Origin: Candidatus Methanomethylophilaceae archaeon
GTDB taxonomy: Archaea; Thermoplasmatota; Thermoplasmata; Methanomassiliicoccales; Methanomethylophilaceae
Direction of reading: 5' to 3'
Assembly: GCA_944320495.1 (NCBI GenBank)
Contig: CALUHR010000009.1
Coordinates: 64,001-128,000, forward strand
Length of the DNA: 64,000 nucleotides
Part shown: piece after piece, positions 12,874-60,816 of the stretch
How positions within the stretch are numbered: position 1 is the first letter of the stretch
Layout of the letters: each line of letters opens with the position of its first letter
Translations under genes and position numbers: made by a program
Notes under the pieces: generated by a model
What the model saw: the letters and a program-made list of their open reading frames with translations, nothing else
The model's database searches: none
Told to the model about the DNA's origin: nothing

Positions 12874-13254
12874 ATGGCTTTCGGATCCGGCGCTCCATCG
12901 GAGGAGTACAAGCTCGTCGTCCTCGTAAGGACGGATCTCGACATGGGCAAGGGCAAGATCGCGGCCCAGGTCGGTCACGCCTCGGTCGAATGCGCCCTGA
13001 GGGCCGAGAAGAAGGACAAGCGCGCCTTCGACATCTGGATGAACGGCGGTCAGAAGAAGGTCGTCCTCAAGGTCGCCAACAAGGACGAGATGGTCCGCTA
13101 CATGTCCGAGGCCAAGAGCCGCGGGCTCTACGCGTGCATGATCACCGATGCCGGCCGCACCGAGGTCGAGCCCGGGACCAACACCTGCGTCGGCATTGGT
13201 CCCGCCCCCGGCTCCGAGATAGACCGCGTGACCGGCGGCCTCAAGATGCTCCGA
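12874..13254 (+). CDS. pth2: Peptidyl-tRNA hydrolase Pth2
   Basis: KLVVLVRTDLDMGKGKIAAQVGHA, QKKVVLK, DAGRTEV, GIGPA..IDRVTGGLKML then CGA (13252-13254); standard-code stop only at 13356. Confidence 0.95.
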
Positions 13255-20647: not shown

Positions 20648-20811
20648 GGGGCTCGCATTCCGATGTCTTCATAATAAAAGGGCGCACGGGACGGACGGGG
20701 ATTAAGCCCGGTTGAGGGCCTGATGTAATAAAATGGGCAGTTGGAACCGTCATCCAAATATAATTCGCGGTGCATGCCAGACGTAGGTGTGAGCTAGTGG
20801 ACAAGGTAGAG

Positions 20812-21426
20812 ATGTCGCCCATCCTCCTCTCTCCCGGCAACAGGCTGGTGACGGTCTTCGGAGGGGGTAGGGTCGCCCTTCGCAAATGCCGCCATTTTGA
20901 CGGATTCAGGATACGCGTGGTCTCCGAGGAGGTCATGCCCGAGCTGAGGGAGCTGGCGGAGGAGGTCCTCATCGATTCCATCGACAGGGACAACGTCCTG
21001 CGCTACATCGAGGGGTCCGACATCGTCGTGGCCGCCACGTCCGACCACGCGCTCAACGATATGATAAGGGACACCGCTATGTCCCGGGGGATAATGACCA
21101 ACTCCGCCCACGGCGGAGGGGACGTCCTAATACCATCGACCCTCCACAGGGACGGCTGGACGGTCTGCGTGTCATCCGAGGGTCGCGTCCCGGCGTTCCC
21201 ACCCTATGTGATCGAGAGGATCGACGAGATGCTCGACCCATCGTACGATGCGATGCTGGCACTGCTGGTCGACCTGAGGGTCGTCATAAGGGAGAGGATA
21301 CCCACGCAGCCAGGTAGGGCGGAGTTCCTCGCAGGGGTGCTCGCAGATGAGGACGTCTGGGACCTCCTGAGGGAGGGCCGCGGCGGGGAGGCGAGGGAGC
21401 TGGCTCTCGCGAGGGGAGGTCTCCGA
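20812..21426 (+). CDS. sirC: Precorrin-2 dehydrogenase
   Basis: VTVFGGGRVALRK, VVAATSD; ends CTC CGA TGA, with the A of CGA starting the hemA ATG (CGATG). Standard-code stop 21429. Confidence 0.85.
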
Positions 21427-22667
21427 TGATAGTTAGCATGCATGTTACGCACACCTCGGCCGGAGGCACGACGGGTCTGAACGACGTCGTCCCGAGGCTG
21501 GAGGAGGAGGCGGCCAAACGTCTGCCGGGCATACAGTGGATCTCGGAGTACGTGGTGGTCCGCACCTGCAACCGTTTCGAGATTTACGCCGCCACTGGCA
21601 GCAACCTCTCGGTCAGGGAGTTCTTCGATTCGATGATCAGGACGATAGTCCCCTCGTCGAACATCTCGTACACGCTGGACGACAGGGACAGCATCAAGCA
21701 CCTCTTCAGGGTGGTCTGCGGTCTGGACTCCCTCATCGTCGGCGAGGACCAGATCCAGCATCAGGTCCGTGAGTCGTACATGAGGGCGAGAGAGGAGGGA
21801 CATGTCGGAAGCATGCTCTCCCATCTGTTCGACAAGGCGATGGCCGTCGGCAAAAGGGTCAGGACCGAGACGTCCCTGAACAAGGGGGCCGTATCGGTGG
21901 GATCCGCGGCGGTGGAGCTGGCCGAGGGTCGTCTGGGGGACCTGTCCGGCAAGAGCATCACGATCCTGGGGGCGGGCGACATAGCGTCCGTCATCGCGAA
22001 GAACCTTATGGGCAAGAACCTGGGCACCGTCGTCGTCTCCAACCGTACGTACAGCCGCGCCATAGAGCTGGCGAGCGAGCTGGGCGGCAAGGCCGTCAGC
22101 ATGGCCAGGATGACCGACGCCGTGGCGGACTCGGACGTTGTCCTGGTGGCCACGGGCGCACCGCACGCCGTGCTCAAGTGCAGTCATGTCAGCGAGGCCA
22201 TGGCAAGGAGACCGGACCGCCCGCTGCTTGTGATCGATGTAAGCATACCCAGGAACACCGAGGACTCGGTGTCCGGGATACCGAACGTCGACGTGGAGAA
22301 CATGGACTCGCTGCAGTCCATAGCCATGAGGAACGTCGAGCGCCGCAAGTCGGAGATCGCCGCCGCCGAGAGGATCATCACGGAGGAGCTGGCGAAGATC
22401 GACTCGGAGCAGAAGGAGCAGTACGCCAACGACGTCATCAGGCGCATTGGGATCAAGCTCGCGGGCATACGCGAGCATGAGCTTGGAACCGCTAGGTCTC
22501 GTGTGGGTTCCGCCGACATGGAGGAGATCCTCGAAGACCTGTCAAGGGCGATGGTCAACAAGATCACCGCCGAGCTTTACAAGAATCTGAGGGAGGCATC
22601 CCGCGACGGCCGCATGGAGACTTGCGGCGCCGCTGTGGAGCTCTTCGGACTGGAGGATTCGGAATGA
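21426..22667 (+). CDS. hemA: Glutamyl-tRNA reductase
   Basis: RTCNRFEIY, GLDSLIVGEDQI, ILGAGDIA, NRT, DVSIPRN. Confidence 0.95.
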   Translation: MIVSMHVTHTSAGGTTGLNDVVPRLEEEAAKRLPGIQWISEYVVVRTCNRFEIYAATGSNLSVREFFDSMIRTIVPSSNISYTLDDRDSIKHLFRVVCGLDSLIVGEDQIQHQVRESYMRAREEGHVGSMLSHLFDKAMAVGKRVRTETSLNKGAVSVGSAAVELAEGRLGDLSGKSITILGAGDIASVIAKNLMGKNLGTVVVSNRTYSRAIELASELGGKAVSMARMTDAVADSDVVLVATGAPHAVLKCSHVSEAMARRPDRPLLVIDVSIPRNTEDSVSGIPNVDVENMDSLQSIAMRNVERRKSEIAAAERIITEELAKIDSEQKEQYANDVIRRIGIKLAGIREHELGTARSRVGSADMEEILEDLSRAMVNKITAELYKNLREASRDGRMETCGAAVELFGLEDSE

Positions 22668-29895: not shown

Positions 29896-30669
29896 ATGAT
29901 ATTCGTCTTCTCCGGCACGGGGAACTCGTACGCGGCCGCCAAGCGCATCTCCGAAGCCATCGGCTCCGGCATGATCGACATCGCCGCGGCGGTGAGGTAC
30001 AAGCGCTACACCTACGACGCCAAGGGAGAGCCCGTCGGGTTCGTGTTCCCCACCTACTACTACGGGCTCCCGCGCATGGTCCTCGAGTTCGCCAGGAACG
30101 TCACAGTCCTGAACCCCGGCAGGGTGTTCGCCGTGACCACCTGCGGGGAGGAGTCCGGAGGGGCCTGCGAGATGCTCGCCGAGGAGCTCGGCAGTCGTCT
30201 GAGGGTCGATGCATCCTACGACGTGGTCATGCCCGACAACTCCGTCTTCGCCTTCGACCCCCCGACAAAGGAGCAGGCGGAGGAGACGCTGAGGGCCGCC
30301 GACGCCGAGATCGACCGCATCATAGGGTCCATCAAGGCGGGTGAGTCGGGAGACATGTGCGCCCACAAGGGTGACAAGGACTGGAGGGAGATCTATGCGC
30401 TCTACGACGAGCAGCGCGTGACGGAGCCCTTCAGGATCACCGACGCCTGCATCGAGTGCAGGATCTGCGAGGACATCTGCCCGGAGCAGATCATCAAGGT
30501 CTACCACAGGAAGCCGGTCTGGGACGAGGAGAAGTGCTCCCTCTGCATGGCCTGCATCCAGATGTGCCCCAAGGGGGCGATAGAGTACGGCGATGCCACG
30601 GTGAACCGCGGCAGGTACTACAACCCAATCTTCTACGAGAGGACCATCGGGATACCGCTGAAGTACCGA
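29896..30669 (+). CDS. EFR1-family ferrodoxin (flavodoxin + 2x[4Fe-4S])
   Basis: VFSGTGNS, GFVFPTY, MPDN, CIECRICEDICP, CSLCMACIQMCP; CGA 30667-30669 after ..IPLKY; standard-code stop 30717. Confidence 0.9.
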
Positions 30670-40223: not shown

Positions 40224-41321
40224 ATGGACTCGAGAGGAAAAAGGGAGGTGCTGGAGGGACTTTATGGCCCGATGTCCAGATCCATCAGGAAAATGCGGGG
40301 GCTCAGACCGGGCAAAGGGACAGTGGAGCTCCTCGATTTGCCGATGCTGACATTCCTCCAGTGGATCAAGGATTACGGCAACTGCAGTGCGGAATGCAGG
40401 ATCATCCCAAGCAACGACAAGTACGGACTTGCGGCGACGTTCGAAGACATCCAGGTCGATGTTGGGAACTTCAGGAGAAGGGGACAGGCATATGATGACG
40501 ATCAACCTGAGGATGACATCCTCCTTCCAGTATTCGTCGGTGACGAACTCCAACGCTTCTTGAAAGATGACGACGGCCTCCGGTGCCCGGTCCTGCATGG
40601 CCATCCGATGTGCATCGTGGACTTCAGTCAGCTGTTGCCTTACCGTTTCACTGAGGATGCGAAGTCCGGCATATCGCCTCACACCCTTGAACCAGGGACC
40701 ATTTGGATGAGGGCAGAGAGCATCCTGGAAAAGACCCTGAGTCTCATATGGCTGACATCAATGATCGATTTCGATGGAGACCGGGAGTTGCTAAGACTGG
40801 GATGCCCCGTATTGTCATCAAATCCGCCCCCTCCGAAGCAATACGATGTGGAATCCAAGGTGGTGATAATATTCGGGTCCATAGGTAGCTTGGATTCCGA
40901 GTACTACAACCTGAAAGGTAATGACAAGTTCGGTCATCTGGATGCTAACGGACTGAACAACACATACGTCTTCGAACATGATGGCATGCACATCCGTCAT
41001 TACAGGGTCCTGAGCGACGATCCCCGGAATTTGAATAGTCATGATCTCAACGGGAGCATCGGAGAGAGGGTCCTACCAAATATGCTGAAAGATGCCAGAG
41101 ACACCGATGAGATCGGTGTGAAGAGAACAGTCGTCGTCATAGGCCGCACGGACGTCGAGGTTGCGCTGTGGATCATGAAGCAATGCGATTCCCTGGGGCT
41201 GACATACGATACGGCACGTAATCTGGACGAGGGAGGCAAAATGAGCCTGTTCTTCCTCAAGTGCTCTCAACTCTTCGAGAGGGAGAGATCGCTCTCCGGA
41301 GTCGATGGTCCGACCCTTCGA
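40224..41321 (+). CDS. Hypothetical protein (island)
   Basis: AT-richer codon usage; alternative start 40143 (ATGA overlap); ends CTT CGA TGA. Confidence 0.7.
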
Positions 41322-42526
41322 TGACCTTCGATCAGACCATCGAAGAAATCTGTTATCGCAAGATCGAGCTCCTCGGATCTCGGGTGCACACTGGATCCCG
41401 TGATGTCCCTCAGGATGTAGGAGGGGCCCGCTCTGATGGTCACATAGATCTCGTACGTCCTCGCGAACACCTCAGAAGGGGAGAGGTAGTACCACAGGTT
41501 CGGGTCGCTGACGAGTCTAGGGAGCACGTCCTTCGAATACAGCGTCTTCACAGGGATGAATGAAGACGATGTCGATGGCCTGTTCATGAAGAAGTCCATT
41601 GCATGTCCGTACTCGTGGACCAGCACGTCCGGCCTGGATGTGTTGACCAGGACGTCCCTCAGCCTCCCGTTGAACTGCCCGATGAAATCTGTTCTGGAGA
41701 ACCTTCTGACCCTCAGATGGAGGTCCGCCCAGGCAGGGGGCCTCGGCAGCACATCCATCGCCTCGAGCCCGATGATGCCCTCGGCCAAAGACCTGATCTC
41801 CGCGGAAGAGACCCTGGGGTCCACATCCAGACCCGTGAAGAATCCGTTCAGTTCCGTCTCATTCAGAAGATTCGTTCCGCGTTCATCTGAGCGGATGTCG
41901 CAGTAGGGGCGCATGGAGGCGGGAACATCCCTCAGGAGTCCTCTCGCACGGCAGTATGCCCTCATCGCGGTGAACAGGAATGCGAACCTGTTCTTCCAGA
42001 GGCCGAACGGTCTGACGGTGCCATCTAAGGTGAAGACCCTCCCGGTCATGTCGTCTGCGGCATCCGAGAAGTATCCGATCTCGCGGGCGGTCCTGGAATC
42101 CGACGTGCGGGACATCTCGAGGATGTCGCGCTGCAGTGCCAGCAGTCCCATTTCAGATGCTATGAGCCCAGGATCAGCCAGTATGCGGTCCCCTTCGGTA
42201 GTGTGCACCGCCCTCCCATGGAGATCGGGGCCGATGGGCACATCCGGGACCAGGAAGATGATGCCGCCATCGGACATCATGAAAAGCAACCTGAGTACGA
42301 TCCCGGGGCGGACGTCATCCCGCTCGATGATGCGGAGGACAGCTGACCGTTCGAGAGACAGGCATTCCGGCTCGGTAGACAGTTCGAGGCCGAACGCATC
42401 CCGCATTCTGGAAGACAGTGCCAGCAGATCCGAGGCGTACGGCGGGAACCCTGCAGCGGCCCATGTCTCGGCCAACGCCTTGAGTCTGGCGGTCGCGTCT
42501 TCGAAGTCATCCATGTCGCATCCCAT
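41318..42526 (-). CDS. Zincin-like (HEYGH) protein with LPD1-like C-terminus
   Basis: VLVHEYGHAMDF; YYLSPSEVFARTYEIYV; in-frame CGA 41320-41318; standard-code stop 41267. Confidence 0.72.
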
Positions 42527-42615: not shown

Positions 42616-43095
42616 ATGAAAGACAGCAAGGACAGGGTCAGGAAGATGCTCCAGAAGCAGAATGCCAGAATCAAGGAGGAGACGGAGGACACCATCAAGT
42701 TCATCCCCGATCTCAACGAGGGGTTCTGTCCTCCCGTCATGGTCCGCATCTGGGACGACCATGTGATGTTCATCACCGAGCTCAAACCAGATGTTCCAGA
42801 GAAGGCGAGGCAGAAGGTCTCCGGACTGGTGCATGACTTCAACAAGCGTAACTCAGAGGGGGTGCTGGACTACGACATGGAGGATGGCCAGGTATGGGTC
42901 AGGACCTGGGAGCGTGTGGGAAACGGCCGCAGATTCGGGCCGAAGGACCTCGAGTACCATATCCGCCTGGCCAGGGAAATCTCGTCCTCGGTGACGCCGA
43001 AGATATTCGTGGCATGCTCGGGCATCGATGCCGACCCGGATGAGAACGGGGGATGCACCCCTGGAGGGGACGATCCGTCCGTCATGTACGGACGA
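42616..43095 (+). CDS. YbjN/T3S-chaperone-like protein
   Basis: VRIWDDHVMFITEL..LVHDFNKRNSEGVLDYDMEDGQVWVR..DLEYHI; ends DDPSVMYG then CGA. Fused to VirD4 under the standard code. Confidence 0.65.
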
Positions 43096-44662: not shown

Positions 44663-45265
44663 ATGGCTAGCAGAAGCAAGCGCAACGGAAACAGGAGACA
44701 GAACCGCAGAAAGAGCGGACGCGGGGGAGGATGCTCCCCCGACATGTACCAGAGAGGGCTCGACGAGATCAAGGCGATGATGGTGAGCAGCTTCACAGAC
44801 ATCCGCGAGACGATCGGCTCCGCTGGAAACAGCTCCGGAGGAGTGGTGACCGTCGAGGAGGAAATCATCCGCCGCCTCATCGGAATCGAGAGGAAGATGG
44901 ACTGCCACAGGGATGACGCAGCCGCAGGGGCAGTGCGCGGAGAGGTCCTGAAGGTCGCAGAGATGGTCGAGAGGGCGTACCCTCTCCTCGATGCGATCGG
45001 AGGCGACCCCGAGACCGACAGGAAGATCGCCATGAACACTGCCCTGATGCTCCGCAACTCCGTAAGGAGGATGGGGGTCGAATCCAGGGGATGCTCTGCC
45101 GGCGACGCATTCGACCCCTCCATGATGGAGGCGGTATCCGTCATCGACACCGACGACGAGGCCCTCGAGGGCAGGGTCGCGGACGTCGTCACCAGTGCCG
45201 CCTACTGGCTGGACGGGGAGCTCATCATGCCTCAGGCCGTGTCCGTCTACAGGAGGTGCCAGTGA
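44663..45265 (+). CDS. grpE: GrpE-like nucleotide exchange factor
   Basis: Coiled coil then GDAFDPSMMEAV..VADVVTSAAYWLDGELIMPQAVSV; TGATG-coupled to the Hsp70-like gene. Confidence 0.8.
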   Translation: MASRSKRNGNRRQNRRKSGRGGGCSPDMYQRGLDEIKAMMVSSFTDIRETIGSAGNSSGGVVTVEEEIIRRLIGIERKMDCHRDDAAAGAVRGEVLKVAEMVERAYPLLDAIGGDPETDRKIAMNTALMLRNSVRRMGVESRGCSAGDAFDPSMMEAVSVIDTDDEALEGRVADVVTSAAYWLDGELIMPQAVSVYRRCQ

Positions 45266-46800
45266 TGTCCGAGGAGAAGCAGTCAGTCGTAATGTTCGTG
45301 GGCGTGGACGTCGGCACCACCCAGACAGTGGTCAGGGTCATCGGTGCATACGACACCGAACCCCAGCAGGTCAATCTCACCGGAAGGACCGCCCCCATGG
45401 CTTCCGCCATCTACATCGCTCCCGACGGTACCATGCTCTACGGGGACCAGGCGAAGCGCAACGCGGTGACCCAGCCCGAGAGGGTCATCCAGCTCTTCAA
45501 GCAGTTCCTCAGGACGAACAAGAGCTGGGATATCGATGGCAAGACATACACCCCTGCCGATGGGTACACGCTCATCATCCGCAAGGTCAGAGAGATCCTC
45601 GAGAGCATGTTCCCCGGTACGGATTTCCAGTTCGTCCCGACCGTACCTGCCAACTACGGCACTCCCGAGAGGGTCAAGGTCACCGATGCCTGCACCGCCG
45701 CCGGCGTCAACGTGATCGCCCTGGTCAACGAGCCCACCGCCGCCGCGCTGTGGTACTTCAGGAACGACTCCAGGCTCATCGGCTCCACCATCGCAGTGGT
45801 GGATCTCGGCGGGGGGACCCTCGACATCACACTGATGAGGGCCGTCAACAACGACGGCCAGCTGGACTTCGAGGTCCTTGCTTCCAAGGGTGTCGAGAAC
45901 CTCGGCGGCGAGAGGTGGACGGCCGACGGAGTCTACAGGCAGATGCTCGAGAAGTACTGCGCAGAGGCCGGCGTGACACCCGAGGACGTCAAGGCCGACA
46001 CCAGGTCCGACATGACCCTCAGGGCCCTGGCCGAGGAGTGCAAGATCGAGCTCTCCCAGGGTTCTACGTCCACCGTCATCGTGCTCTCCATCAGGCCGGA
46101 CGTCGCCGTGACCTTCGAGATGACCCAGCAGGAGTTCGACGAGAACACCAGGGATCTGCTCGCCAACGTCCTGGAGACCCTCGGAAGGGCCATCGATTCC
46201 TCAAGGGAGCGCGACCCCAGCTTCGGACTGCCCGACAGCGTGATCCTCGCAGGCGGTGCCTGCATGATGCCGCAGATCAGGAACGGCATCATCGAGGCAT
46301 ACCCGGAGCTGGAGGGGAGGGTGAGCGTCAAGGACCCCTTCGTGGCCATAGCGAGCGGGGCGGCCCTCTACGGGGCCCTGGGGCTCACCGTGAAGGACAG
46401 ACTGACCAAGTCCTACGGATGCATCGCGCTTGACAACAGGACCGAGAAGGAGAAGGTCTACAACCACCTGAGGGCAGGGGACGAGATCCCCTCCAGCGTC
46501 GAGCGCAGGTACTACACCGTCGCCGACGGGCAGCTCGCCATCCTGGACCGCATCATCGAGAACGAGTGCGAGGGAGCGGTGCTCAGCCCCAACGCCAAGG
46601 GGGCCAGGTGCATCGGCAAGATGAGGCTCGAGCTGCCTCCGGGACTCCCGAAGGGAACGCCCATCGACACCGTGTTCGACACCGACGATGGTGCCGTGCT
46701 CAGAGTGAGGAGCACCTGTGCGGGCAAGGAGGTCTCCACGACGCTGGAGATCTCGACGAAGCCGGTCAGCGAGAAGGCCGTCGACCCGTTCAGCATCTGA
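45265..46800 (+). CDS. Hsp70-family protein, short (about 511 aa, no lid)
   Basis: GVDVGTTQT, LVNEPTAAAL, VDLGGGTLDIT, ILAGGACMMPQI; substrate-binding beta domain, then stop. Confidence 0.88.
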   Translation: MSEEKQSVVMFVGVDVGTTQTVVRVIGAYDTEPQQVNLTGRTAPMASAIYIAPDGTMLYGDQAKRNAVTQPERVIQLFKQFLRTNKSWDIDGKTYTPADGYTLIIRKVREILESMFPGTDFQFVPTVPANYGTPERVKVTDACTAAGVNVIALVNEPTAAALWYFRNDSRLIGSTIAVVDLGGGTLDITLMRAVNNDGQLDFEVLASKGVENLGGERWTADGVYRQMLEKYCAEAGVTPEDVKADTRSDMTLRALAEECKIELSQGSTSTVIVLSIRPDVAVTFEMTQQEFDENTRDLLANVLETLGRAIDSSRERDPSFGLPDSVILAGGACMMPQIRNGIIEAYPELEGRVSVKDPFVAIASGAALYGALGLTVKDRLTKSYGCIALDNRTEKEKVYNHLRAGDEIPSSVERRYYTVADGQLAILDRIIENECEGAVLSPNAKGARCIGKMRLELPPGLPKGTPIDTVFDTDDGAVLRVRSTCAGKEVSTTLEISTKPVSEKAVDPFSI

Positions 46801-46851: not shown

Positions 46852-47586
46852 ATGTTCTCCGTTCCCGAAGTGGTCGAACCATTCTACTGGGGGCGCCTCC
46901 GCTACACGTCCGAGAGGGAGGCGTACTCTCGCATAAGATCCGCCATGATCGGAGGGTCCGCCTCCGTCGGGGTGGAGGACCTCCGTCTCACTACCGGGAT
47001 GATGCTCGATGTGAGCGACGCCATCTATCTGGACGATCCCATGCTCTTCCACTGTCGCATAGACTCCTGGGATCTTATCGACGGGATGGCCACGGAGGTC
47101 TTCATCACCCAGCACTACACCGAGGCCGCGCGCGCATCGATGCGCAGGGCCATCGGGGATGCGCTCTCCGACGCCTACTACGGATGCCTGCGCGGGGCCC
47201 CCGACATCTTCACAGCAGAGAGGGCGGTCCTGAGATGGCTCAGGGGCAACGTCGTCTACGACATCAAGGAGGCCGATGACAGCATCCCTGAGCACGAGTA
47301 TCGCTCCGTCGTAGGGGCGCTGGTGCACCGCAGGGGCGTGTGCTCATCGATCTCGATGGCCGCCTCGCTCATGCTGAACGCCTGCGGTTTCAGGACGATC
47401 TGCGTAGTCGGGACGTCCCAGGGGGAGGGACACATGTGGGATGCCATCAGAACGCCGTCCGGATGGCTGCATTCTGATTTCACCTTCGCCTTAGGCGCAG
47501 ATGACGTCACATATCTGGACATGGACGACAGGTCCTGCGCCGTCGACCACGAGTTCGACATAGAGCTCCGGGATTACTGGGCGCGA
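46852..47586 (+). CDS. Transglutaminase-like protein with intact Cys-His-Asp triad
   Basis: RGVCSSIS, GHMWDAI, WLHSDFT; CGA 47584-47586; standard-code stop 47874. Confidence 0.82.
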
Positions 47587-47623: not shown

Positions 47624-49450
47624 TCGGTCCCCCTCCTCGAACTGCGCGTCATGGAGGGTCCGGTAGTATCCGCCGAGCTCCAGCAGCTCCTCGTGCGTGC
47701 CGGATTCGACGATCTCCCCTCCCACCATCACCAGTATCCTGTCGGCGTTGCGGACGGTCGACAGTCTGTGAGCGATCACGAACGACGTCCTTCCGCCGGT
47801 CATCAGGTCCATCGCCTGCTGGATGCGCTTCTCGGTGCGGGTGTCCACGGAGCTCGTCGCCTCGTCCAGTATGACCATGGGGGCGTCCTTGACTATGGCA
47901 CGGGCGATGGCGATCTGCTGCCTCTGCCCCACGGACAGGCCTCCCCCGGACCCTATCACGGTCTGATACCCGTCGGGGAGCGAGCGGATGTACTCATCGA
48001 TCCCGACGGTCCTGCAAGCCTCCTCCACCCTCTCGGGCGTGGCCCCGGGGCTGGTGAACGCCACGTTGTCGTAGACTGTCCCGTCGAACACCCACGAGTC
48101 CTGGAGGACCATGGAGAACTGCTCCCTCACCTGGTCCCTCGACAGCGATGACGTGGGCACACCGTCTATGAGGATCTGCCCGGACCACGGGTCGTGGAAC
48201 CTCATCAGCAGGTTGACCAGGGTGGTCTTCCCCGCTCCCGTGGGACCGACGATGGCGATGGTCGATCCCGGCTCCACGGTCAGGTCCAGTCCGTGGATGA
48301 CCTCCACGTCCGGACGGTATCCGAAATGGACATCCCTGAATTCGACCCTGCCCTCGGCCCTGGAGAATCCCGGGAGCCTCGGGTCGTCCTCCATCTCCGG
48401 GAGGGCGAGGAACTCGAACACGCGTTCCGATGCGGACGCCACGGACTGCATCCTGGCGATGACGTCCGCCAGCTCCGCGATCGGCTGGTTGAACTTCTTT
48501 ATGTAGACGATGAAGGCCGCTATCACACCGTAGGTGGCCGACCCCTCGATGATGAGGACGGATCCTGCGACGCATACCATAACGTAGCCCAGGTTGCTGA
48601 TGAAGTGCATCAGCTGGGGCATCATGGAGGTGATGACCCTCGCCCTGAACGACGAGCGGAACAGCTCCTCGTTGACCCCGTCGAACTCCGCGCGGCTGTT
48701 GTCCCAGTTGTCGTACGTCCTGACTATGTCATGGCCGTAGTAGACCTCCTCCACTATGGCGTTGATCCTCCCGAGGTCCCTCTGCTGGGCCACGAAGAAC
48801 CTCTGGGTGCGGTGCGTGACCACCCAGAGCGCAGCCATGCCGAACAGCGTGGGGATCACCGCCACCAGCGCGAGTTGCCAGCTGGTGAGGAGCATCATCA
48901 CGATGGCACCGATCATGGTGAAGACGGCGTTGATCGTGTTGGAGAAGCTCTCGGCCGAGCCGCTGCGGACCGTGTCCGTGTCATTGGTCATGCGGCTCAT
49001 CAGGTCGCCGACCTGGTGCGACTCCAGATAGGAGAACGGCAGGCGGTAGAACTTGGACGACAGGTCCTTGCGCATCCGGTCTCCGACCCTCTCGGAGGCG
49101 GTGCCGATGATCCTCGACGCCGACGAGTCGAACAGGAAGCTCAGGCCGTAGATGGCCACCAGGATGATGCCCAGCGTCCCGACCCATCCCGTGTCCACGC
49201 GGCCGTGGTCCGGGTCCAGAATGGATGCGGAGATCTCGTCGGTCATCATCTCCAGGAACTGTGGGCCAACCAGCGCCAGGAGCGTCCCGGCCAGCGTGCA
49301 CGCCATGCCTAGCAGGACCGCGCGACGCTCCCTGCCCATGTACGCGAACAGGTTCGCCATCGCCTGTCCCAGGTCCTTGGGCTTGTCGGAACCGCGGGTC
49401 CATCTCGGGCCCTTGGGCTGCGTCCTTGCTCCGGGCTCGGTGCTCGACAT
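47624..49450 (-). CDS. ABC exporter, TMD+NBD subunit 2
   Basis: GPTGAGKT, LSVGQRQQ, ILDEATSS, IAHRLS; CGA 47626-47624 after QFEEGD; standard-code stop 47507. Confidence 0.92.
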
Positions 49451-51194
49451 CGAAGTCCTCCAGCTGGGAGTGTGCGATCTCGCGGTACAGCTCGCATGAG
49501 GCCATGAGCTCCGCGTGCCTTCCCCTGCCGACGACCCGCCCATGCTCCAGCACGACGATCTCGTCGGCGTCCAGTATCGTCCCGACCCTCTGGGCCACAA
49601 TTATCTTGGTGGCGTCTGCGATCTCGCGGGACAGGGTCTCGCGGAGGTCCCTGTCGGTCTTCGAGTCGAGCGCCGAGAACGTGTCGTCGAACAGGTAGAT
49701 CGGCGGGTCCTTGCAGACCGCCCTCGCGATGGAGAGCCTCTGCTTCTGCCCTCCCGACAGGTTCCAGCCGTGCTGGCTGACGTCAGAGCGTATGCCCTCG
49801 GGGAGACGGTCGGCCAGGTCACCGAGCTTGGCTATGCGCAGGGCGCGCTCCGCCTGCTCCTCGGTGCGCTCCGCGCCGCCGTAGCGTACGTTGTCCAGCA
49901 GGGAGCCTGAGAATACGACCGCGGTCTGGGGCACGTAGCCGATCATGGAGCTCAGCTCGTCCACGCGGTAGTCCCGCACATCGCGTCCTCCTACGAACAC
50001 GTGTCCGGAGGTGGCGTCGTAGAGCCTCGCCATCAACGAGACGACGGTGGACTTCCCGCTGGCCGTCGGACCGATGATGGCCAGCGTTCCACCTCTGCGT
50101 ACAGTGAACGATACGTCGTGGAGGACCTCGGCGTCGGTCCCCGGATAGGTGAAGCTGACGTGCTCGAACCTCACCTCGCCAGGCTCGGTGGCGTCGGACG
50201 CCCCGAGGGCTCCGTCCCTCACGGCTGATTCGTGGGAGATGACGTCCTCGATCCTCCTGGAGGACACCATGACGTTGGGCAGCTGCCGGAGGATCCCGGT
50301 GGTCATCATCACTGCGGAGAGCACCTGGGTGGCGTAGGACGTGAACACTATCATGTCCGAGAACAGCACCATCTGCTCCTCGGTGCTCCCGTAGGCCTGG
50401 TCGATGACGGCCGCCCCGACCCAGTAGATCGCCATGGTCAGGAAGTTCATCATCGCAGCCGAGAGGGGGTGCATATAGGACATCACCCTGGTGACCGCGA
50501 CGGCGTTGTCCCTCAGGTGGTCGGAAGATTCCTCGAAGTCGCGGGTCTGATGCGCCTCGCCGTTGTAGGCGCGGATGGTGCGCATGCCCTCCAGCTCCTC
50601 GCGGGTCTCGGCGTTGACCTCGTCCACGAACCATTGCATCCTGCGGATGTAGGGTATCCCGCGGCTCAGGATGACCGCCATGCACACAAGGAGCACGACC
50701 ATGGCGACGATGGTCACGGATGTCCACTGGAACGAGCTGCCCGCTATCTTCCATATGGCCCAGACAGCGATTATCGGCGCCTTGACGACCGATTGGATGG
50801 CGCGACCGACGAACTGCTGGAGATGGTAGACGTCGTTGGTCGAACGGGTCACGAGGGATGCTACTGAGAACGAGTCCAGGTCTTCGCGGGACCACGATTC
50901 TATCCTTGAGAACTGCATCTTGCGGAGCGTCCTGCAGAGTGCGGACGCGACGCGCGATGCGAGGGCGGCGGTGGCGACGGCCAGCACGAAGCTTATTAGC
51001 GCGCATGCGACCATGTCCACGCCGCATCCGGCGATCACGTCGGTGGCATCCCCTGCCTGGAGATGGTACGTGATCTCCGACATGTATTCGGGGATGCGGA
51101 GGTCCAGATACACCTGCCCCGTTATGAGGAGGATGCAGCAGGCCACCATTCCCCAGTCTCTCTTACGCAGATACCTCAAAATCGCTCTGATCAC
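49437..51194 (-). CDS. ABC exporter, TMD+NBD subunit 1 (degenerate Walker B)
   Basis: GPTASGKS, LSGGQKQR, LFDDTFSALD, VAQRV; CGA 49439-49437 after SQLEDFDVEH; standard-code stop 48981. Confidence 0.92.
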
Positions 51195-52986: not shown

Positions 52987-54357
52987 TCGGTCGATCGTTC
53001 TCTCGCGTCCTCTGGAGTCCCTGTACTCGGCGCATCTCCTGAGGAACCCTAACGGAACCTCCGGGTTCGAGTAGTAGTACATGTGGGGGTACCCGGCGAG
53101 GAGCGTCCCGGTGTCGTTGATGCACCTGTACGTGGTCTCCCTCTTGGAGGCCTCCCAGTCGTCCCCGTTGGACTCGCTGTCCCAATAGTGGAACTCGTGC
53201 CCCTTGACGACCGGCCTGGACCCCATCATCCCGTCCTCGTCGACGGGCTGCAGCGTCACATAGCCGAACCTGCAGAGCTTCCCCGTGTTCCAGGTCCTGC
53301 CGGGTATGGCGCCCACCATGTACCTCTCGACCCCGTCCCCGTCCTCCATCCTCTCGTGGAGGTACATGAACCCGCCGCATTCGGCGATGCATGGCATGCC
53401 CGAGGCAATCGCATCGCGGATGTCGTCCAGCATGGAGCGGTTGGACTCCAGCTCCTCCCCGTGGAGCTCCGGGTACCCTCCGGAGAGGACGATGCCGTCC
53501 ACGTCCGAGAGATGCTCGTCTTGCATGGGCGAGAACCTGACAATCTCGGCGCCGCACCTCTCTAGCAGCTCGATGTTGTCCTCGTAGGTGAAGCAGAACG
53601 CGTCATCGTCGGCAAGGCCGATCCTCACCGTCCCGTCGACCCTCCCGACCGTGGGAGCGGAGTACTCCAGATTCGGCGCGGAGCGCGCCATCTCCAAGAT
53701 GCCGTCGATGTCCACGGTCCTCTCCAGCTCCTGTCCGAGCCTCTTCAGCCTGTCCCTGAGCTCCTCCACTTCTCCGGGCAGGACCAGTCCGAGATGCCGG
53801 CTCTCCAGCACGAGGTCCTTCAGCTTCGGGACGTATCCGAGAGGTCTGATGCCCATCCTCTCGGCCTCCGGCGCCAGGGCCTCGTAGACCCTCTGGGACA
53901 TCTGGTTGAAGATGACGCCGGAGATTCTGTTGGGGCGGAAGTCCTTGAATCCTTTCAGCACCGCGAGCGTGGAGAGGGACGCTCCCCTGGAGTTCACAAT
54001 CAGGATGACCGGTATGTCCAGCTTCTCCGAGACGTCGTAGGAGCTGGCGTCGGTCCCTGTGAAGTCGACCCCGTCGTAGAATCCCATCACACCCTCGACC
54101 ACGGAGACGTCGCATTGCTCCGCGGTCCGGCCGAATAGATATCTCAGCGTCCGGGCGTCGACGAAGTAGGCGTCCAGGTTCTTCGATCTGGCGCCGATAA
54201 CGCGGGAGTGGAACATGGGGTCGATGTAGTCCGGACCGCATTTGAACGAGGCGACACTCAGTCCGCGGTCGACCAGGGCCTGCAGGAGGCCGCAGGTGAT
54301 CAGAGTCTTCCCGCTGCCGCTGGCGGGCGCGGCGATCATGAACCTCGGAAGGCTCAT
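52987..54357 (-). CDS. cbiA: Cobyrinate a,c-diamide synthase
   Basis: ASGSGKT, FKCGPDYIDP, VEGVMGFYDG, LESRHLGL, AFCFTYEDN, GGYPE, AECGGFMYL, GHEFHY; CGA 52989-52987, TGA 52966. Confidence 0.93.
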
Positions 54358-56339
54358 CTGCCCCTCACCACCGCGATGTAGACGGGGTTCTGCCCGAACA
54401 TGAGGTGGTACGAGCCGAGCTTCTTGGAGCGGGCGACTGTGACGTTGATGATGTCCTCCTCCACGAGCCCCAGATCCCTTATCACCTGGGCGGTCTCGGC
54501 TATGGTCTCTATGGTCACGGAGTTGATTACGATGCGGACGTCGGGGTTCTTGTCCAGCAGGCACTGCACGATCTGCTTCAGGTTGCCCGACGAACCACCG
54601 ATGAACGCGTGTGTGGGGGACGGGAGGTCGGCCATCGCCTCCGGAGCCAGGCCCCTGACGATCTCCAGGTTGGGGGTCTTGAATCTTCTCTTGTTGATCT
54701 CGATGAGGTCCGCCGCGGCATCCTCCTTCTCGATGGCGTAGACCCTCCCGTTAACCGCGGTAAGGGCCATCTCGATCGACACGGACCCGGTGCCGGCGCC
54801 GACATCGTAGACGACGGAGTCGTCGCAGAGCTTGAGCTTGGCCACGGACAGCGCGCGGACCTCCGACTTGGTCATGGGGGCATCCCCCCTGACGAACTCC
54901 TCGTCGGGTATGCCGACGGGGTTCCTCCTGTCGGGGCTCCCGTTGTAGATCATTGCCACGCACAGGTCCCCGAAGGAGTGTGCCAGCAACTCGTCCGGTG
55001 ATCCTCTGACGATCCTCTCGGACGGGTATCCGAAGTCCTGGCCGATGGCCACTTCGACGTCCATCCCGTATTCGGACAGCTGGGAGCACATGGCGTGGAC
55101 GGTGTCCTCGCCGGAGAGGAGGGTGAAGACCTTCGCATGGGTGTTCGCCAGCCCCACGATGTTCGCGTCGCGGCCGTGGGCGCTGGTGACGTACGCATCG
55201 CTCCACGTGTCTCCGAGCTTCGAGGCGAAGTACACGAGGGACGAGATCCCGCATTCCACGTCGACTTCGTACTCCTCCGGGTCGAGGGCCTGCAGGAGCT
55301 TCGTAGCGCCGCTGTAGAATCCGGTGTCGCCGGAGAGCAGCACCGCTGCATCCGTGAACTGCGGATGGGAGTCCAGATACCCGCGGATGGCGTCAGCCCT
55401 GTATTCCACGAGGACCTCTTTGCTGGACGTGTCGATGGATTCCACCATGCGTTTGGCGCCGATCACGAGGCCGCATCCGGCCACCCTCGCGGCTGCCCTC
55501 TGGGTCATGTCCCCGGGGCCCATGCCGATGCCTACGAGGGCGACCCTGCGTCTCTCCTCCGATGGGGTCTCCGCATCCGTGTGGTCCAGTCCTAGTCTGT
55601 CGTCCAGCATCCTAACAACCTCTCCATAATCGTGGCCCGACTCGGCGGGCCTGCTGATGAGCACGATCTTCGCACCTGCGCGTCTGGCGGCGCGGACCTT
55701 CTCCTCGAATCCGCCGATCGTTCCTGAATCCTTGGTGACGAGCCATCTCGCACCTGCGCGCCTCAGCGCGGCCAGGTTCTCCTCCTCCGTGAACGGCCCC
55801 TGGGCGGCGATGAGGTGCGACCCCTCGAATCCGAGCGACACGGCCTTCCCCATGGATTCGCCTGTGGAAAGGACGCGTGCCGTGAGTCTCTCCCGGTAGT
55901 CTGGTATCTCCGTGTACAGGTGGAGCTCGTTGGACCCGGTGGAGACCAGGACGTTGCCCTCGGTCCCCTTCAGGAACTCCACGGCATCCTTCACGGAGGG
56001 GACCTCCACTATGTCGTCCGGCGCGCATCCGCCGTCCCTGACGAGCCTGATGCATTCGACTCCCGCCTCGGAGCACCCCTCGCGGATGTGCTCCGATATC
56101 CTCCTGGCATAGGGATGGGTGGCGTCGACGACCAGGCCGTAGCCGCAGTCGCGGATCACCCTGGCTATGCCCTCGGCCCCGCCACAGCTCCCGACCTGTA
56201 CGTCCACGCCGTCCTCCTCCATGACCACTGCCCCGTACTCGGTGGCGACGCGCACATGGACGGGCACGCCTCTGGAGTGGAGGTATCTGGCTACGGCCCT
56301 GCCGTCGGCGGTCCCGGAGAAGACCAGAACGTCGGTCAT
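54354..56339 (-). CDS. cbiJ-cbiET: Triple fusion: cobalt-precorrin-6A reductase + CbiE + CbiT
   Basis: VFSGTADGR, VDATHPYA, LVTKDSG..GG (CbiJ); LVGIGMGP, LLSGDTGFYS (CbiE); PMTKSEVR, YDVGAGTGSVS, AFIGGS (CbiT). Confidence 0.9.
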   Translation of the reverse strand: MTDVLVFSGTADGRAVARYLHSRGVPVHVRVATEYGAVVMEEDGVDVQVGSCGGAEGIARVIRDCGYGLVVDATHPYARRISEHIREGCSEAGVECIRLVRDGGCAPDDIVEVPSVKDAVEFLKGTEGNVLVSTGSNELHLYTEIPDYRERLTARVLSTGESMGKAVSLGFEGSHLIAAQGPFTEEENLAALRRAGARWLVTKDSGTIGGFEEKVRAARRAGAKIVLISRPAESGHDYGEVVRMLDDRLGLDHTDAETPSEERRRVALVGIGMGPGDMTQRAAARVAGCGLVIGAKRMVESIDTSSKEVLVEYRADAIRGYLDSHPQFTDAAVLLSGDTGFYSGATKLLQALDPEEYEVDVECGISSLVYFASKLGDTWSDAYVTSAHGRDANIVGLANTHAKVFTLLSGEDTVHAMCSQLSEYGMDVEVAIGQDFGYPSERIVRGSPDELLAHSFGDLCVAMIYNGSPDRRNPVGIPDEEFVRGDAPMTKSEVRALSVAKLKLCDDSVVYDVGAGTGSVSIEMALTAVNGRVYAIEKEDAAADLIEINKRRFKTPNLEIVRGLAPEAMADLPSPTHAFIGGSSGNLKQIVQCLLDKNPDVRIVINSVTIETIAETAQVIRDLGLVEEDIINVTVARSKKLGSYHLMFGQNPVYIAVVRGR

Positions 56340-57364
56340 AGGAACCTCGCCTCCACTCTCTTCGAACAGATAGCGATGGTCATGCCGTCCCTGGGGGTCT
56401 TGCGGAGCACGAACTCCTCCCCTCCGGCGATGACGGCCGAGCGCTCGCAGACGCAGTCGACGTCGGTGACGCTGCTCACGAACTCCGATCTCGAGAACTC
56501 TCCCTCGAGGGAGTTGAGCTCCTCCGCGGAATGGAACGATGCCGGCACCCTCAGGCGCCTGGCCAGCTCGAGTATGGCCTCCTCGTCCCTCTTGATGTCT
56601 ATGCTGGAGACGGCGGCAACCCTCTGGCGGGCGATGCCAAGGCCATCCAGCGTCGATTTGACGAAATCCCACAGCTTCGCGGGGTCGGTCCCGCGTTTGC
56701 AACCCACTCCCAGTACGATGTCCTGCGGCACGAGGTTGAGAGTGACATCGAACGGCTTCTCCCCCGGATCGGATGATATGCAGACGCCCAGCTCTCCGGA
56801 GTCTGCGGGTGTTATGCCGTCCGGGAGATCGCCCCCCACGGGGATGTTCGAGCGGAATCCCACGAACCTCCCGTCAAGAACCCTGGCCGAGACGTCCTTG
56901 GCGATGGCCATGCTGGAGATCCTCATGCCGTTCCTGGAGGCGAAGGTGTCCACCGAGAACTTCCCGTTCAGGTCCGTGGCGGTGGTGATTATCGGTTCGG
57001 AGCCCATCCTGTCCGCTATCCTGGCGGTCAGCTCGTTGCATCCGCCGATGTGTCCGGACAGGAGAGCCACCGCCCAGCGACCGTGCTCGTCCATGCAGAC
57101 GACCGCGGGGTCCGTGGTCTTGCTCCTCACGTAGGGGGCGATGTATCTCACCGCGATGCCGATGGCTCCGATGTAGACGATGGCGTCGCATTCGTTCCAT
57201 GAGGCCCCGGTCCACTCGCCCACCTTGCCCTCTATCCTCTCTACGCCAAGGCTGTCCGACGTGGTCTTGCAGTAGATCCTGACGTCGTCCTCCCTCAGCG
57301 CCTCCTTGAGCCTCAGCGCCGTCCTGCACCCGTTGGTGGAGAAGGCGACCGCGTCGATCCGCAT
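56336..57364 (-). CDS. cbiG: Cobalt-precorrin-5A hydrolase
   Basis: GIAVRYIAP, DPAVVCMDE, LLSGHIGG, ITTATD, GVGCKRG, CVCERSA. Confidence 0.93.
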   Translation of the reverse strand: MRIDAVAFSTNGCRTALRLKEALREDDVRIYCKTTSDSLGVERIEGKVGEWTGASWNECDAIVYIGAIGIAVRYIAPYVRSKTTDPAVVCMDEHGRWAVALLSGHIGGCNELTARIADRMGSEPIITTATDLNGKFSVDTFASRNGMRISSMAIAKDVSARVLDGRFVGFRSNIPVGGDLPDGITPADSGELGVCISSDPGEKPFDVTLNLVPQDIVLGVGCKRGTDPAKLWDFVKSTLDGLGIARQRVAAVSSIDIKRDEEAILELARRLRVPASFHSAEELNSLEGEFSRSEFVSSVTDVDCVCERSAVIAGGEEFVLRKTPRDGMTIAICSKRVEARFL

Positions 57365-58509
57365 CGCAGCTCCCTCCTGACCTCGTCGAGGAGCTCGTCC
57401 GCCAGGCTCGTCTTGCCCAGCAGTCCGTATGCCGACGAGAACATCACAGCCCCCGTCCGGATCCTTCCGCCAGTGCGGTGGTTCATATGGAACTCTATCT
57501 TCTCGACAAGGAGCTTCGAGACCTCGGGGATCAGCCCCTCCCTGTCGATCACGTCCAGGGCGTCGTCCGTGGATATGCACCCCATGATCTCCCTGACGCA
57601 GTCCATCGACGCTCCCGCAATCGCCGCGTTGGCGGCGAGGATCTCCATCCTGGCATCGGCGTTGCGCGAATGCGTGTTCATGATGCCGCCGGCGAGCTTG
57701 ACCATCTTGCCCAGATTGGATACGAGGACGATGTCCACGCCCAGCTCCACCGCGCAGTCGAGCATCTCGCCGACGAAGTTGCTGCATTTGACGGCGAACT
57801 CGGGGTCGATCCCGTCGATCCCCTCGGAGAAGTCCCTGCCGTAATTGCCAGGCACAACCAGCAGAACCTTGTTGCCGTCGGCGGCGCGCACCCTCATCTC
57901 GGTGCGGATAGTCTCCACCAGGGCGGTCTCGCTCATCGGCTCCACTATGCCGCTCGTCCCGAGGATGGAGATCCCCCCCTCGATTCCGAGGCGGGGGTTG
58001 AACGTCCTCTCCGCAATCTCCGTTCCAGCCGGGACGGATATGACCGCCCTCAGGCCCCCGGTGTATCCCATCGCGGATGACACGTCCTCCAGGGCCTCGC
58101 GGATCATGGACCTCGGGACGCGGTTTATGGCGGCGTTGCCAGGCGGCTGGTCGAGCCCCTTGCGGGTCACCCTTCCGACCCCGACTCCGCCGTCTATCTC
58201 GATCCCCTCGGGGATCATGGACACCTCAGAATAGACGAGAGCACCGTGGGTGGCGTCGATGTCGTCGCCGCCGTCCTTCCTGACGGCACAGGATGCCGTT
58301 TCCCCATCGATCCTGAGGTCCTCGACGGGCAGGTCCAGGACTATGCCCTTGGGGGTCGTGATGCTGACCGTCTCCACGGGAGTTCCCAGGAGCGCCATCG
58401 CCGCCGCCTTGCTGGCAGCGGTCGCGCAGGTCCCGGTGGTGTGGCCCCTTCTAAGACGCTTGTTGTTCACATAGACGTACATCTCGTCGGGTCTGGGGCC
58501 TAGGGTCAT
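57364..58509 (-). CDS. cbiD: Cobalt-precorrin-5B C1-methyltransferase
   Basis: LRRGHTTGTCA, KDGGDDIDAT, GGVGVGRVT, AINRVPR, NPRLGIEGGISILGTSG, KLAGG..NTH; ends with CGA overlapping the cbiG ATG; standard-code stop 57313. Confidence 0.95.
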
Positions 58510-59309: not shown

Positions 59310-60061
59310 TCTCGTTCATCGGAGCCGGACCCGGGGACCCGGAGCTCATCACAATAAAGGGAAAGAGGCTTATCGAGCAGGCAGACGTAATCATCTACGC
59401 CGGATCGCTGGTCAACCCGGACGTTCTGGAGGGCCACAAGGCCGGCGCGGAGATCTACAACAGCGCCCTGATGGACCTCGACGAGGTCATCGCCGTCATG
59501 GAGAAGGCCGAGAGGGAGGGCAGGAAGGTCGTGCGCGTGCACACCGGGGACCCCGCCATCTACGGCGCCCACAGGGAGCAGATGGACAGGCTCGACGAGC
59601 TCGGGATAACCTACGAGGTCATCCCCGGCGTGTCCTCCGCCTTCGCCACCGCGGCCGCCCTAAACGCGGAGTACACGCTCCCCGGGAGGAGCCAGACCGT
59701 CATATTCACCAGGATGGAGGGGAGGACCCCCATGCCGGAGCGCGAGAAGCTCCCGGACCTGGCGAGACACCACGCCACCATGGTCATCTTCCTGTCCATC
59801 GGATTCATGGACGAGATGGCCAGACAGCTCCAGGAAGGCGGATACGAGCCCACCACGCCCGTCGCCGTGGTCTACAAGGCGTCCTGGCCGGACCAGAGGA
59901 TCGTCCGCGGGACCCTGCAGGACATCGCCCAGAAGGTCAAGGATGCGGGCATCACGAAGACCGCCCTGACGGTCGTCGGCGAGTTCCTCTGCGAGGACCA
60001 CGAGCTCTCCAAGCTCTACGACAAGCACTTCACAACCGAGTTCCGCAAGGCGAAGGAGTGA
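59306..60061 (+). CDS. cbiF: Precorrin-4 C11-methyltransferase
   Basis: IGAGPGDPELIT, RVHTGDPAIYGA, SQTVIFTR, YKASWPDQ, SKLYD. Confidence 0.95.
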   Translation: MISFIGAGPGDPELITIKGKRLIEQADVIIYAGSLVNPDVLEGHKAGAEIYNSALMDLDEVIAVMEKAEREGRKVVRVHTGDPAIYGAHREQMDRLDELGITYEVIPGVSSAFATAAALNAEYTLPGRSQTVIFTRMEGRTPMPEREKLPDLARHHATMVIFLSIGFMDEMARQLQEGGYEPTTPVAVVYKASWPDQRIVRGTLQDIAQKVKDAGITKTALTVVGEFLCEDHELSKLYDKHFTTEFRKAKE

Positions 60062-60066
60062 TCCGG

Positions 60067-60816
60067 ATGGCGAAGGGAAGGCTACACGTGGTCGGGTTCG
60101 GACCCGGCGGGAAGGACGACATGACGTTCCGCGCCGCGCGTGTCATAGAGAACGCCGACGTGGTCACCGGATACACGACGTACATCAATCTCCTGAGGCC
60201 GATCTTCCCGGACAAGGTCTACAAGGCCACCGGGATGATGAAGGAGGTCGAGCGCTGCAGGATGGCCATAGAGGACGCCGTGTCCGGGAAGGACGTGGCG
60301 ATGGTATCATCCGGAGACTCCGGCATCTACGGCATGGCGGGGATCATCTATCAGCTGGCGGACGAGATGGGCGCCGACATCGAGATCGACACCGTCCCCG
60401 GCATCACCGCCGCATCGTCTGCCGCATCCATCCTGGGCGCACCGCTGATGCACGATCTGGTCATCGTCAGCCTGTCGGACCTGATGACGCCCCTGGACCT
60501 GATCATGGACAGGGTCGGGAAGGCGGCCGAGGGCGACTTCATCACATGCATCTACAATCCCAAGAGCAAGACCAGGACCGAGTACCTGGGCATGGCGAGG
60601 GACATCCTTCTGAAGCACCGCTCGCCGGAGACCCCGGTCGGCATCGTCAGGAACGCCGGCAGGGAGGACCAATCGAGCAAGGTCACCACCCTGGGCGGTC
60701 TCGACCCCGCGGACGTGGACATGTTCTGCATCGTGATCGTCGGGAACTCGCAGACGTACGTGTCCAACGGCCGCATGATCACACCCAGGGGCTACAGGAT
60801 CCAGGGAGGCGAGCGA
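60067..60816 (+). CDS. cbiH: Precorrin-3B C17-methyltransferase
   Basis: VVGFGPG, VSSGDSGIYGMAG, PGITAA, APLMHD, SLSDL, YNPKS, ITPRGY; CGA 60814-60816; standard-code stop 60999. Confidence 0.95.

Follow-up and report, generated by a model that had tools for sequence, protein, structure and literature searches.

An in-frame CGA that overlaps the cbiG start codon is the probable end of cbiD in a Candidatus Methanomethylophilaceae archaeon

The window analyzed here is a stretch of 64,000 nucleotides from contig CALUHR010000009.1 (assembly GCA_944320495.1) of a Candidatus Methanomethylophilaceae archaeon. All positions are coordinates of this window unless a genome prefix is given, and the genome itself is referred to as G000. 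On the minus strand the window carries a co-directional run of cbiD, cbiG, a fused cbiJ/cbiE/T-like gene and a cbiA/cobB-like gene. The CbiD product matches PF01888 (E 2.9e-91; 305.7 bits against a cut-off of 25), and CbiG, covered by the models PF11760, PF11761 and PF01890, has the CbiG_N, CbiG_C and CbiG_mid domains (118.7, 112.9 and 26.6 bits), all above the curated cut-offs. At the cbiD-cbiG junction the minus strand reads ...GTC AGG AGG GAG CTG CGA TGC GGA TCG.... The CGA (57366-57364) is in the cbiD frame, and its A, base 57364, is also the first base of the cbiG ATG (57364-57362), as was claimed in an earlier, sequence-only reading of the window. Beyond the CGA the cbiD frame stays open for 16 codons (CGSTRSPSPPTGAGRR) and then reaches a TGA at 57315-57313, the same distance as had been given in that reading. 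Translation under table 11 yields a 52-nt overlap with cbiG, and the 398-aa CbiD deposited in NCBI/ENA includes this tail. The GC content at third codon positions (GC3) is 8/16 in the tail versus about 0.81 in genes, and its codon usage is non-coding. The tail is probably untranslated, or produced by read-through alone.

The arrangement is that of a stop/start overlap in a coupled gene pair: a shared base at 57364, a Shine-Dalgarno-like site, AGGAGGGAG, upstream of the cbiG start, and a run of co-directional genes. The AGG(A/G)GG of this site is conserved in most relatives, and judging from the sequence the site would bind ribosomes for cbiG. Public gene calls in close strains place the cbiG start at the same ATG. 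The rest of the run is joined by ATGA overlaps (56336-56339 and 54354-54357), and a GrpE-like/Hsp70-like pair elsewhere in the window (44663-45265 and 45265-46800) is coupled by a TGATG with base 45265 shared; both features had been described correctly in the sequence-only reading. In the known AUGA and UGAUG forms of translational coupling the last base of the terminator is likewise the first base of the next AUG, and a Shine-Dalgarno-like site lies in the end of the upstream gene. The terminator differs here, being CGA, and the 1-base overlap is far more common for it (46/238) than for TGA (19/853). We consider it likely that CbiD ends at the CGA and that cbiG is coupled to it through the CGAUG. 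On this interpretation CGA would be the terminator within the overlap, a release factor would act there, and the 16-codon tail would not normally be made. The end of cbiD was accordingly placed at the CGA on the basis of the junction and of the genome-wide evidence given below, with ATG 58509 as the start, as in the public 398-aa record. The last gene of the run, cbiA/cobB-like, likewise ends at a CGA (52989-52987); the next standard stop lies 6 codons downstream.

Genes were called across G000 with a simple home-made caller in which CGA was set as a fourth stop, and the counts are approximate. TGA ended 70.5% of the 1666 genes called, CGA 24.1%, TAA 3.2% and TAG 2.2%, and about 400 genes in this genome point to CGA as a stop. 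Overlaps between same-strand neighbors peaked at different lengths in the two major classes. TGA-ended genes overlapped the next gene most often by 4 bases (258 of 853) and in only 19 of 853 cases by 1 base, whereas for CGA-ended genes the commonest overlap was 1 base, as CGATG (46 of 238), and overlaps of 2 or 0 bases were absent. They pile up at the 1-base overlap because CGA cannot form the 4-base ATGA. Of the CGAs lying over a start codon, 46 shared the frame of the upstream gene and 12 did not, while random phase would give a ratio of 1:2; the genome-wide excess of in-frame CGA at starts that should accompany termination at this codon is thus present. No TGA adjoined the CGA in 34 of the 46 CGATG overlaps, where the next codon was TGG, TGC or TGT. 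The median distance from the terminal CGA to the next standard stop was 24 codons, and about 23 are expected by chance from a GC content of 61.6% (an arithmetic estimate). Since this distance equals the expectation from composition, no back-up stop is maintained. Furthermore, CGA stood directly after a change point in coding score 36 times versus 7 expected, the runner-up codon reaching 13, with CGA itself scored as neutral. The base after terminal CGAs was T in 55%, and the cbiD CGA is also followed by T.

Many CGA ends precede TC, and a methylation-linked base-calling artefact in which TGATC is read as CGATC was considered and rejected. Such an artefact is unlikely because the CGA pattern recurs in independent assemblies and because TGATC is not depleted (5409 occurrences versus 5728 of AGATC). 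Many CGA ends also lie in other contexts.

Gene ends in G000 were compared with those in G030, a distant complete genome from another family (41.5% GC), and in G008, a genome of the same genus. Relative to G030, 37 of 200 open reading frame (ORF) pairs extended at least 12 codons beyond the end of the orthologue. About 14 of these were shadow frames without a CGA; the remaining ~21 were real genes, cbiD among them, and all had a CGA within 0-8 (mostly 0-3) codons of the G030 stop. One such pair of ends is NASMGIGKN-CGA in G000 and NSSLGISK-stop in G030. In the comparison with G008, 46 of 328 true-frame pairs had a CGA end in G000 and, where the alignment ended, a standard stop in G008, and in 12 of these 46 the CGA aligned exactly with a TGA. 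A GC3 filter was needed for this comparison, as conserved DNA also aligns shadow ORFs, and some antisense frames remain in these numbers. The G008-G030 comparison gave 55 pairs, too few to judge G008 itself. In G000, CGA is found at the positions of orthologue stops with no standard stop kept nearby, as would be seen after a change from sense to stop. The sharp genome-wide CGATG peak and the match to orthologue ends both support the earlier statement that the cbiD-cbiG geometry is what termination at CGA would produce.

Inside genes CGA is extremely rare. In segments with a clear coding signature it occurred 0.31 times per 1000 codons in frame versus 34.6 times per 1000 out of frame, and the in-frame value was 0.43 per 1000 in alignments with G030, where three small ORFs align CGA to Arg codons. 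Coding-like sequence was present on both sides in just 20 of 672 CGAs located deep in long ORFs, and according to Pfam most of those 20 separated domains that usually occur as proteins of their own or came right after a complete domain. The presence of tRNA(UCG), together with 2071 CGAs that crude ORFs placed 'in frame', had first suggested to us that CGA encodes Arg and that cbiD had simply lost its stop. We dropped this reading once shadow frames and ORF extensions were seen to account for these CGAs. Their positions were strongly U-shaped along the ORFs, and the flanking sequence was without the coding GC3 signature. A mixture fit of tail codon usage accounted for only half of the CGA excess and was also set aside.

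We compared about 100 related cbiD-cbiG junctions, and nearly all are ATGA or TGATG overlaps, as the sequence-only reading had predicted for the Methanomassiliicoccales. In 22 of 24 other genomes (from the genus and a sister family) the cbiD TGA overlaps the cbiG start as NNATGA. The 77 further Methanomassiliicoccales junctions are ATGA or TGATG, with CGATGC only in a record that matches G018 and CGATGA in UBA71. The 16-codon tail was absent from every homologue compared (24 genomes, the 77 further junctions and the close cluster), again in agreement with that reading. The codon homologous to the CGA is, in the relatives, the last and variable sense codon (Q, S, R, I, E or L), and the stop is the codon after it. 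The cbiD CGA is not a mutated TGA, because the homologous codon in the relatives is sense and the stop follows it. The description of this junction as a CGA form of TGATG holds for its geometry; it does not hold for the origin of the CGA, which was the last sense codon before the TGA.

Among public proteins, the 398-aa product of cbiD under table 11 has 38 cluster mates at 90% identity or more. CbiD proteins that are 99% and 93% identical to that of G000 end in ...RRELR. Five contigs read for P0016 and P0007 have CGATGA, the junction there being CGATGAGG, and P0005 and P0017 have the matching 382-aa length with an Arg end. In the G018 clade CbiD ends in ...RCG; the G018 DNA reads CGATGC with a TAA two codons later, and nine cluster members of 384 or 396 aa that end in RCG agree with it. 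G000 has CGATGC followed by the 16 codons. The CGA was invariant in 7 aligned junction DNAs, and the matching Arg was present in 14 of 14 cluster proteins read. Over 61 nt the sole difference between G000 and the P0016 contigs (the 99% relative) is an A-to-C change at 57361, which is silent in cbiG codon 2 (AGG to CGG) and turns TGA into TGC. In a CbiD tree G000 pairs with the 99% relative (support 1.0), separate from the G018 clade, with a weak deeper node (0.69). The cbiD TGA was thus either lost twice or lost once and regained. The standard stop is labile exactly where CGA precedes it and is stable in about 95 other lineages.

Judged from the relatives, the ancestral junction was an NNA-TGA with an overlapping ATGA. 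The last sense codon turned into CGA and gave CGATGA, as is still found in the closest strains and in UBA71. The TGA, by then redundant, was lost through the A-to-C change that is silent in cbiG, giving CGATGC. Elsewhere in the window, at 21424-21429, a CGATGA joins a NAD_binding_7 (siroheme-synthase-like) gene to hemA (GlutR), with CGA and TGA overlapping the next ATG; this CGATGA is the intermediate state proposed for cbiD.

Several observations weigh against CGA as a stop in G000, and they rule it out as a strict one: an Arg codon in the release factor gene, two composite ORFs and a retained tRNA. The sole gene for the archaeal release factor aRF1 (G000:C2:85933-87402, minus strand) has an in-frame CGA at codon 157, where haloarchaeal, crenarchaeal and human release factors share a conserved Arg. 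Of 22 genus genomes, 21 use CGA for this Arg, with variation at nearby synonymous sites; other families of the order use CGC, CGT, CGG or AGA. G000 has a gene for tRNA(UCG) (G000:C13:413317-413390), as do 11 of 24 genus genomes searched. Loss or disabling of the cognate tRNA, as a clean change from sense to stop would entail, was not found, the gene being kept in 12 genus genomes. A NifH-like and a NifD-like segment form a single ORF (G000:C5:79781-81964, minus strand) with CGA at codon 302, and this ORF, paralogues included, is conserved throughout the genus. The CGA is kept in an otherwise variable linker in 7 of 7 sequences and is followed by a conserved in-frame CxGC...GTRVM segment with no start codon between; this ORF may be a case of programmed read-through or a split gene. 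Similarly, a gmhA-like (SIS) and a gmhB-like (HAD) sequence lie in one frame joined by a CGA. CGA can be decoded, because both the NifH/NifD-like and the gmhA-gmhB ORFs read on without a start codon. The gene calls behind the percentages are also home-made, and the percentages are approximate. Finally, taken by itself, the cbiD locus, with its one-base difference from the nearest strain, might also reflect a neutral loss of the stop in recent times or a sequence error at 57361. The earlier claim that CGA terminates is therefore supported by the genome-wide tests but not in the sense of a pure stop.

The decoding machinery has its own peculiarities in this genus. The NIKS and YxCxxxF motifs of aRF1 are intact, and there are genus-fixed changes beside them: S to A before NIKS, R to M four residues after it, and T to A beside YxCxxxF. 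The tRNA-Arg(UCG) has a 31-39 mismatch (A.A, C.A or U.C) in 12 of 12 genus copies, which leaves a 4-bp anticodon stem, and a short D-loop; the outgroup G030 tRNA(UCG) has a regular 5-bp anticodon stem. The base after the conserved internal CGAs of aRF1 and the NifH/NifD-like ORF is C or A. The in-frame CGA of aRF1 may serve in self-regulation of the release factor. Bacterial RF2 (prfB) is autoregulated through an in-frame UGA, and aRF1 resembles it in carrying in frame the codon at which its own factor would terminate. It differs in that aRF1 has no frameshift and in that the feedback is hypothetical.

Ordinary recent stop loss would leave CGA as arginine, with a 17-residue junk tail on CbiD, a 52-nt overlap with cbiG and a CGA that is there by coincidence. 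Such a history is consistent with the single-base change relative to the nearest strain, with the existence of the cognate tRNA(UCG) and the use of CGA as Arg in aRF1, and with the occurrence of Arg as the final residue in several relatives; in the public 398-aa record, too, the codon is translated as Arg. It would, however, imply that about 400 genes of a single genome lack a stop and that every one of them has a CGA at its orthologous end. The one-base CGATG overlap is a sharp peak and not a random phase, the stop was lost or changed at least two times among lineages of 93-99% identity and only where CGA precedes it, and the tail has non-coding codon usage. We therefore regard ordinary stop loss as unlikely. 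An assembly or consensus error, or a minority variant, at 57361 would mean that the true sequence is CGATGA and that cbiD ends at the TGA. G000 is assembled in 14 contigs, and within 61 nt the P0016 contigs depart from it at this one base. The G018 clade, which is independent, nevertheless has the same C, directly in the G018 DNA and by implication in the nine proteins ending in RCG, and neither a systematic TGA-to-CGA error nor a motif-linked one was apparent. An error at 57361 would in any case leave a CGA in front of the stop and the genome-wide pattern unaffected. An error at this base is very improbable.

A different account would have CGA starved and nearly unassigned, so that ribosomes stall on it and are resolved by a rescue pathway in which no release factor takes part. 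The 31-39 mismatch in every genus copy of the tRNA, next to the normal stem in G030, and the rarity of CGA inside genes are in keeping with it. On the other hand, aPelota, the known archaeal rescue factor, is not known to carry a peptide-release motif and would not finish a quarter of the proteins, and the genus-fixed changes of aRF1 beside NIKS and YxCxxxF, together with its own CGA, fit a release factor better. Yeast eRF1, moreover, can read CGA (PMC7379694). Stalling with rescue thus seems quite improbable to us.

The observations agree with CGA being a terminator that is leaky and context-dependent and has a weak tRNA as its competitor. In the genus Candidatus Methanoprimaticola / UBA71 (Methanomethylophilaceae), CGA would be a fourth, leaky stop, presumably read by aRF1. 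The CGAUG one-base overlap would have the geometry of UGAUG, in which the terminating ribosome sits on the cbiG start and can re-initiate, and the AGGAGG site 6-14 nt upstream would serve this re-initiation. As a more detailed and tentative model, aRF1 would read CGA in competition with a tRNA-Arg(UCG) weakened by its 4-bp stem, the CGA in the aRF1 gene would make synthesis of the factor self-limiting, the next base would set the leakiness (T or G at gene ends, C or A at internal sites), and the cbiD-cbiG junction would be a snapshot of stop decay.

We found no paper that describes CGA termination in the Methanomethylophilaceae, and no published prokaryotic code is known to use CGA as anything but a sense codon. 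Changes from sense to stop are known from organelles: AGA/AGG in vertebrate mitochondria (table 2), UCA in Scenedesmus mitochondria (table 22) and UUA in Thraustochytrium mitochondria (table 23). In these codes, as in G000, the sense codon vanishes within genes and shows up at their ends. G000 differs from them in that the codon is another one and the change would affect about 400 genes on the 1.8 Mb chromosome of a free-living archaeon; it also keeps the tRNA and a few conserved in-frame CGAs, which looks like a dual or leaky use rather than a clean reassignment.

Yeast eRF1/eRF3 detectably reads a single CGA at a gene end as a stop (Wada and Ito 2018, PMC7379694). That misreading is a weak side reaction on reporters, whereas in G000 standard stops have been lost behind CGA, and termination must therefore be efficient enough to rely on. 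In two archaeal assemblies from hydrothermal vents CGA is absent from recognisable domains, and a stop function was raised as a possibility (Melnykov 2026, bioRxiv 10.64898/2026.04.02.715157). In those assemblies CGG is read as Trp, tRNA(UCG) was not found and gene ends were untested; the Methanomethylophilaceae are unmentioned there (10.64898/2026.04.02.715157). The vent archaea are unrelated to G000, and G000 keeps tRNA(UCG). A change of the stop set within the same family is code 34, in which all TAG are read as pyrrolysine; it is used by Methanomethylophilus alvi along with other Pyl archaea and has been confirmed by proteomics (bioRxiv 10.1101/2024.09.30.615893). TAG ends the 2.2% of G000 gene calls given above. 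Code 34 differs in being a change from stop to sense, and CGA is not discussed in that study (bioRxiv 10.1101/2024.09.30.615893).

If CGA terminates, roughly a quarter of the table 11 proteins of G000 are wrong, being extended or fused, as for the 398-aa CbiD in NCBI/ENA. The same misannotation would run across the genus, which includes methanogens of human and animal guts. A sense codon could then turn into a stop in a free-living cell with its tRNA still present; on the tentative model above, the genus would provide the first code change of this kind known from free-living cells. The cbiD junction preserves the series ATGA, CGATGA, CGATGC, which would be the decay of a standard stop behind a new one. 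A private stop would also truncate incoming genes written in the standard code, which bears on gene transfer and virus resistance, and it would provide a natural model for recoding work.

Table 1. Positions of the cbiD-cbiG junction, its neighbors and other CGA-containing or CGA-ended genes.
Feature	Position	Strand	Remarks
cbiD, cobalt-precorrin-5B C1-methyltransferase family	57364..58509	-	381 codons + terminating CGA (probable end); PF01888
In-frame CGA of cbiD, proposed terminator	57364..57366	-	A is base 1 of the cbiG ATG
cbiG start codon ATG	57362..57364	-	Matches CbiG residue 1 in 24 relatives
TGC, former cbiD stop TGA	57361..57363	-	A-to-C at 57361; TGA in relatives
AGGAGGGAG, Shine-Dalgarno-like site	57370..57378	-	6-14 nt 5' of the cbiG ATG, within the final cbiD codons
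Table-11 tail of cbiD	57313..57363	-	16 codons + TGA; out of frame over the cbiG N-terminus
cbiG	56336..57364	-	342 codons; TGA end; ATGA overlap with next gene
Fused cbiJ / cbiE/T-like methylase gene	54354..56339	-	ATGA-coupled on both sides; Pfam CbiJ, TP_methylase, Methyltransf_25
cbiA/cobB-like a,c-diamide synthase	52987..54357	-	Final gene of the run; Pfam GATase_3, CbiA, AAA_26
gmhA-gmhB ORF	G000:C13:193618-194718	-	CGA at codon 192; HAD motif FIDRDDT three codons later, no start between
CGA-ended window genes	8408-9061, 12874-13254, 20770-21426, 29896-30669, 42616-43095, 46852-47586, 60058-60816	+	Gene calls
CGA-ended window genes	14591-16279, 41318-42526, 47624-49543, 52987-54357, 63866-64873	-	Gene calls

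Besides cbiD, 12 of the 60 genes called in the window end at CGA (Table 1), and translation under table 11 would extend them by 0 to 580 codons. Outside the window, pdxT (G000:C3:96745-99459, minus strand) ends ...FLDLI-CGA at codon 402. In G000, G018 and G010 its frame is open past the CGA, through a promoter-like (TATA) box, TTTATAAGG, and into a Sel1-repeat gene. Species with CGC or CGG at this position have a stop nearby, G009 having CGC TGA. For cbiD itself, archaeal contigs with 73-81% identity are filed under bacterial names (Bacteroides ovatus, Bifidobacteriaceae, Lachnospiraceae, Dialister, Prevotella and others), and these records look like binning or labelling errors.

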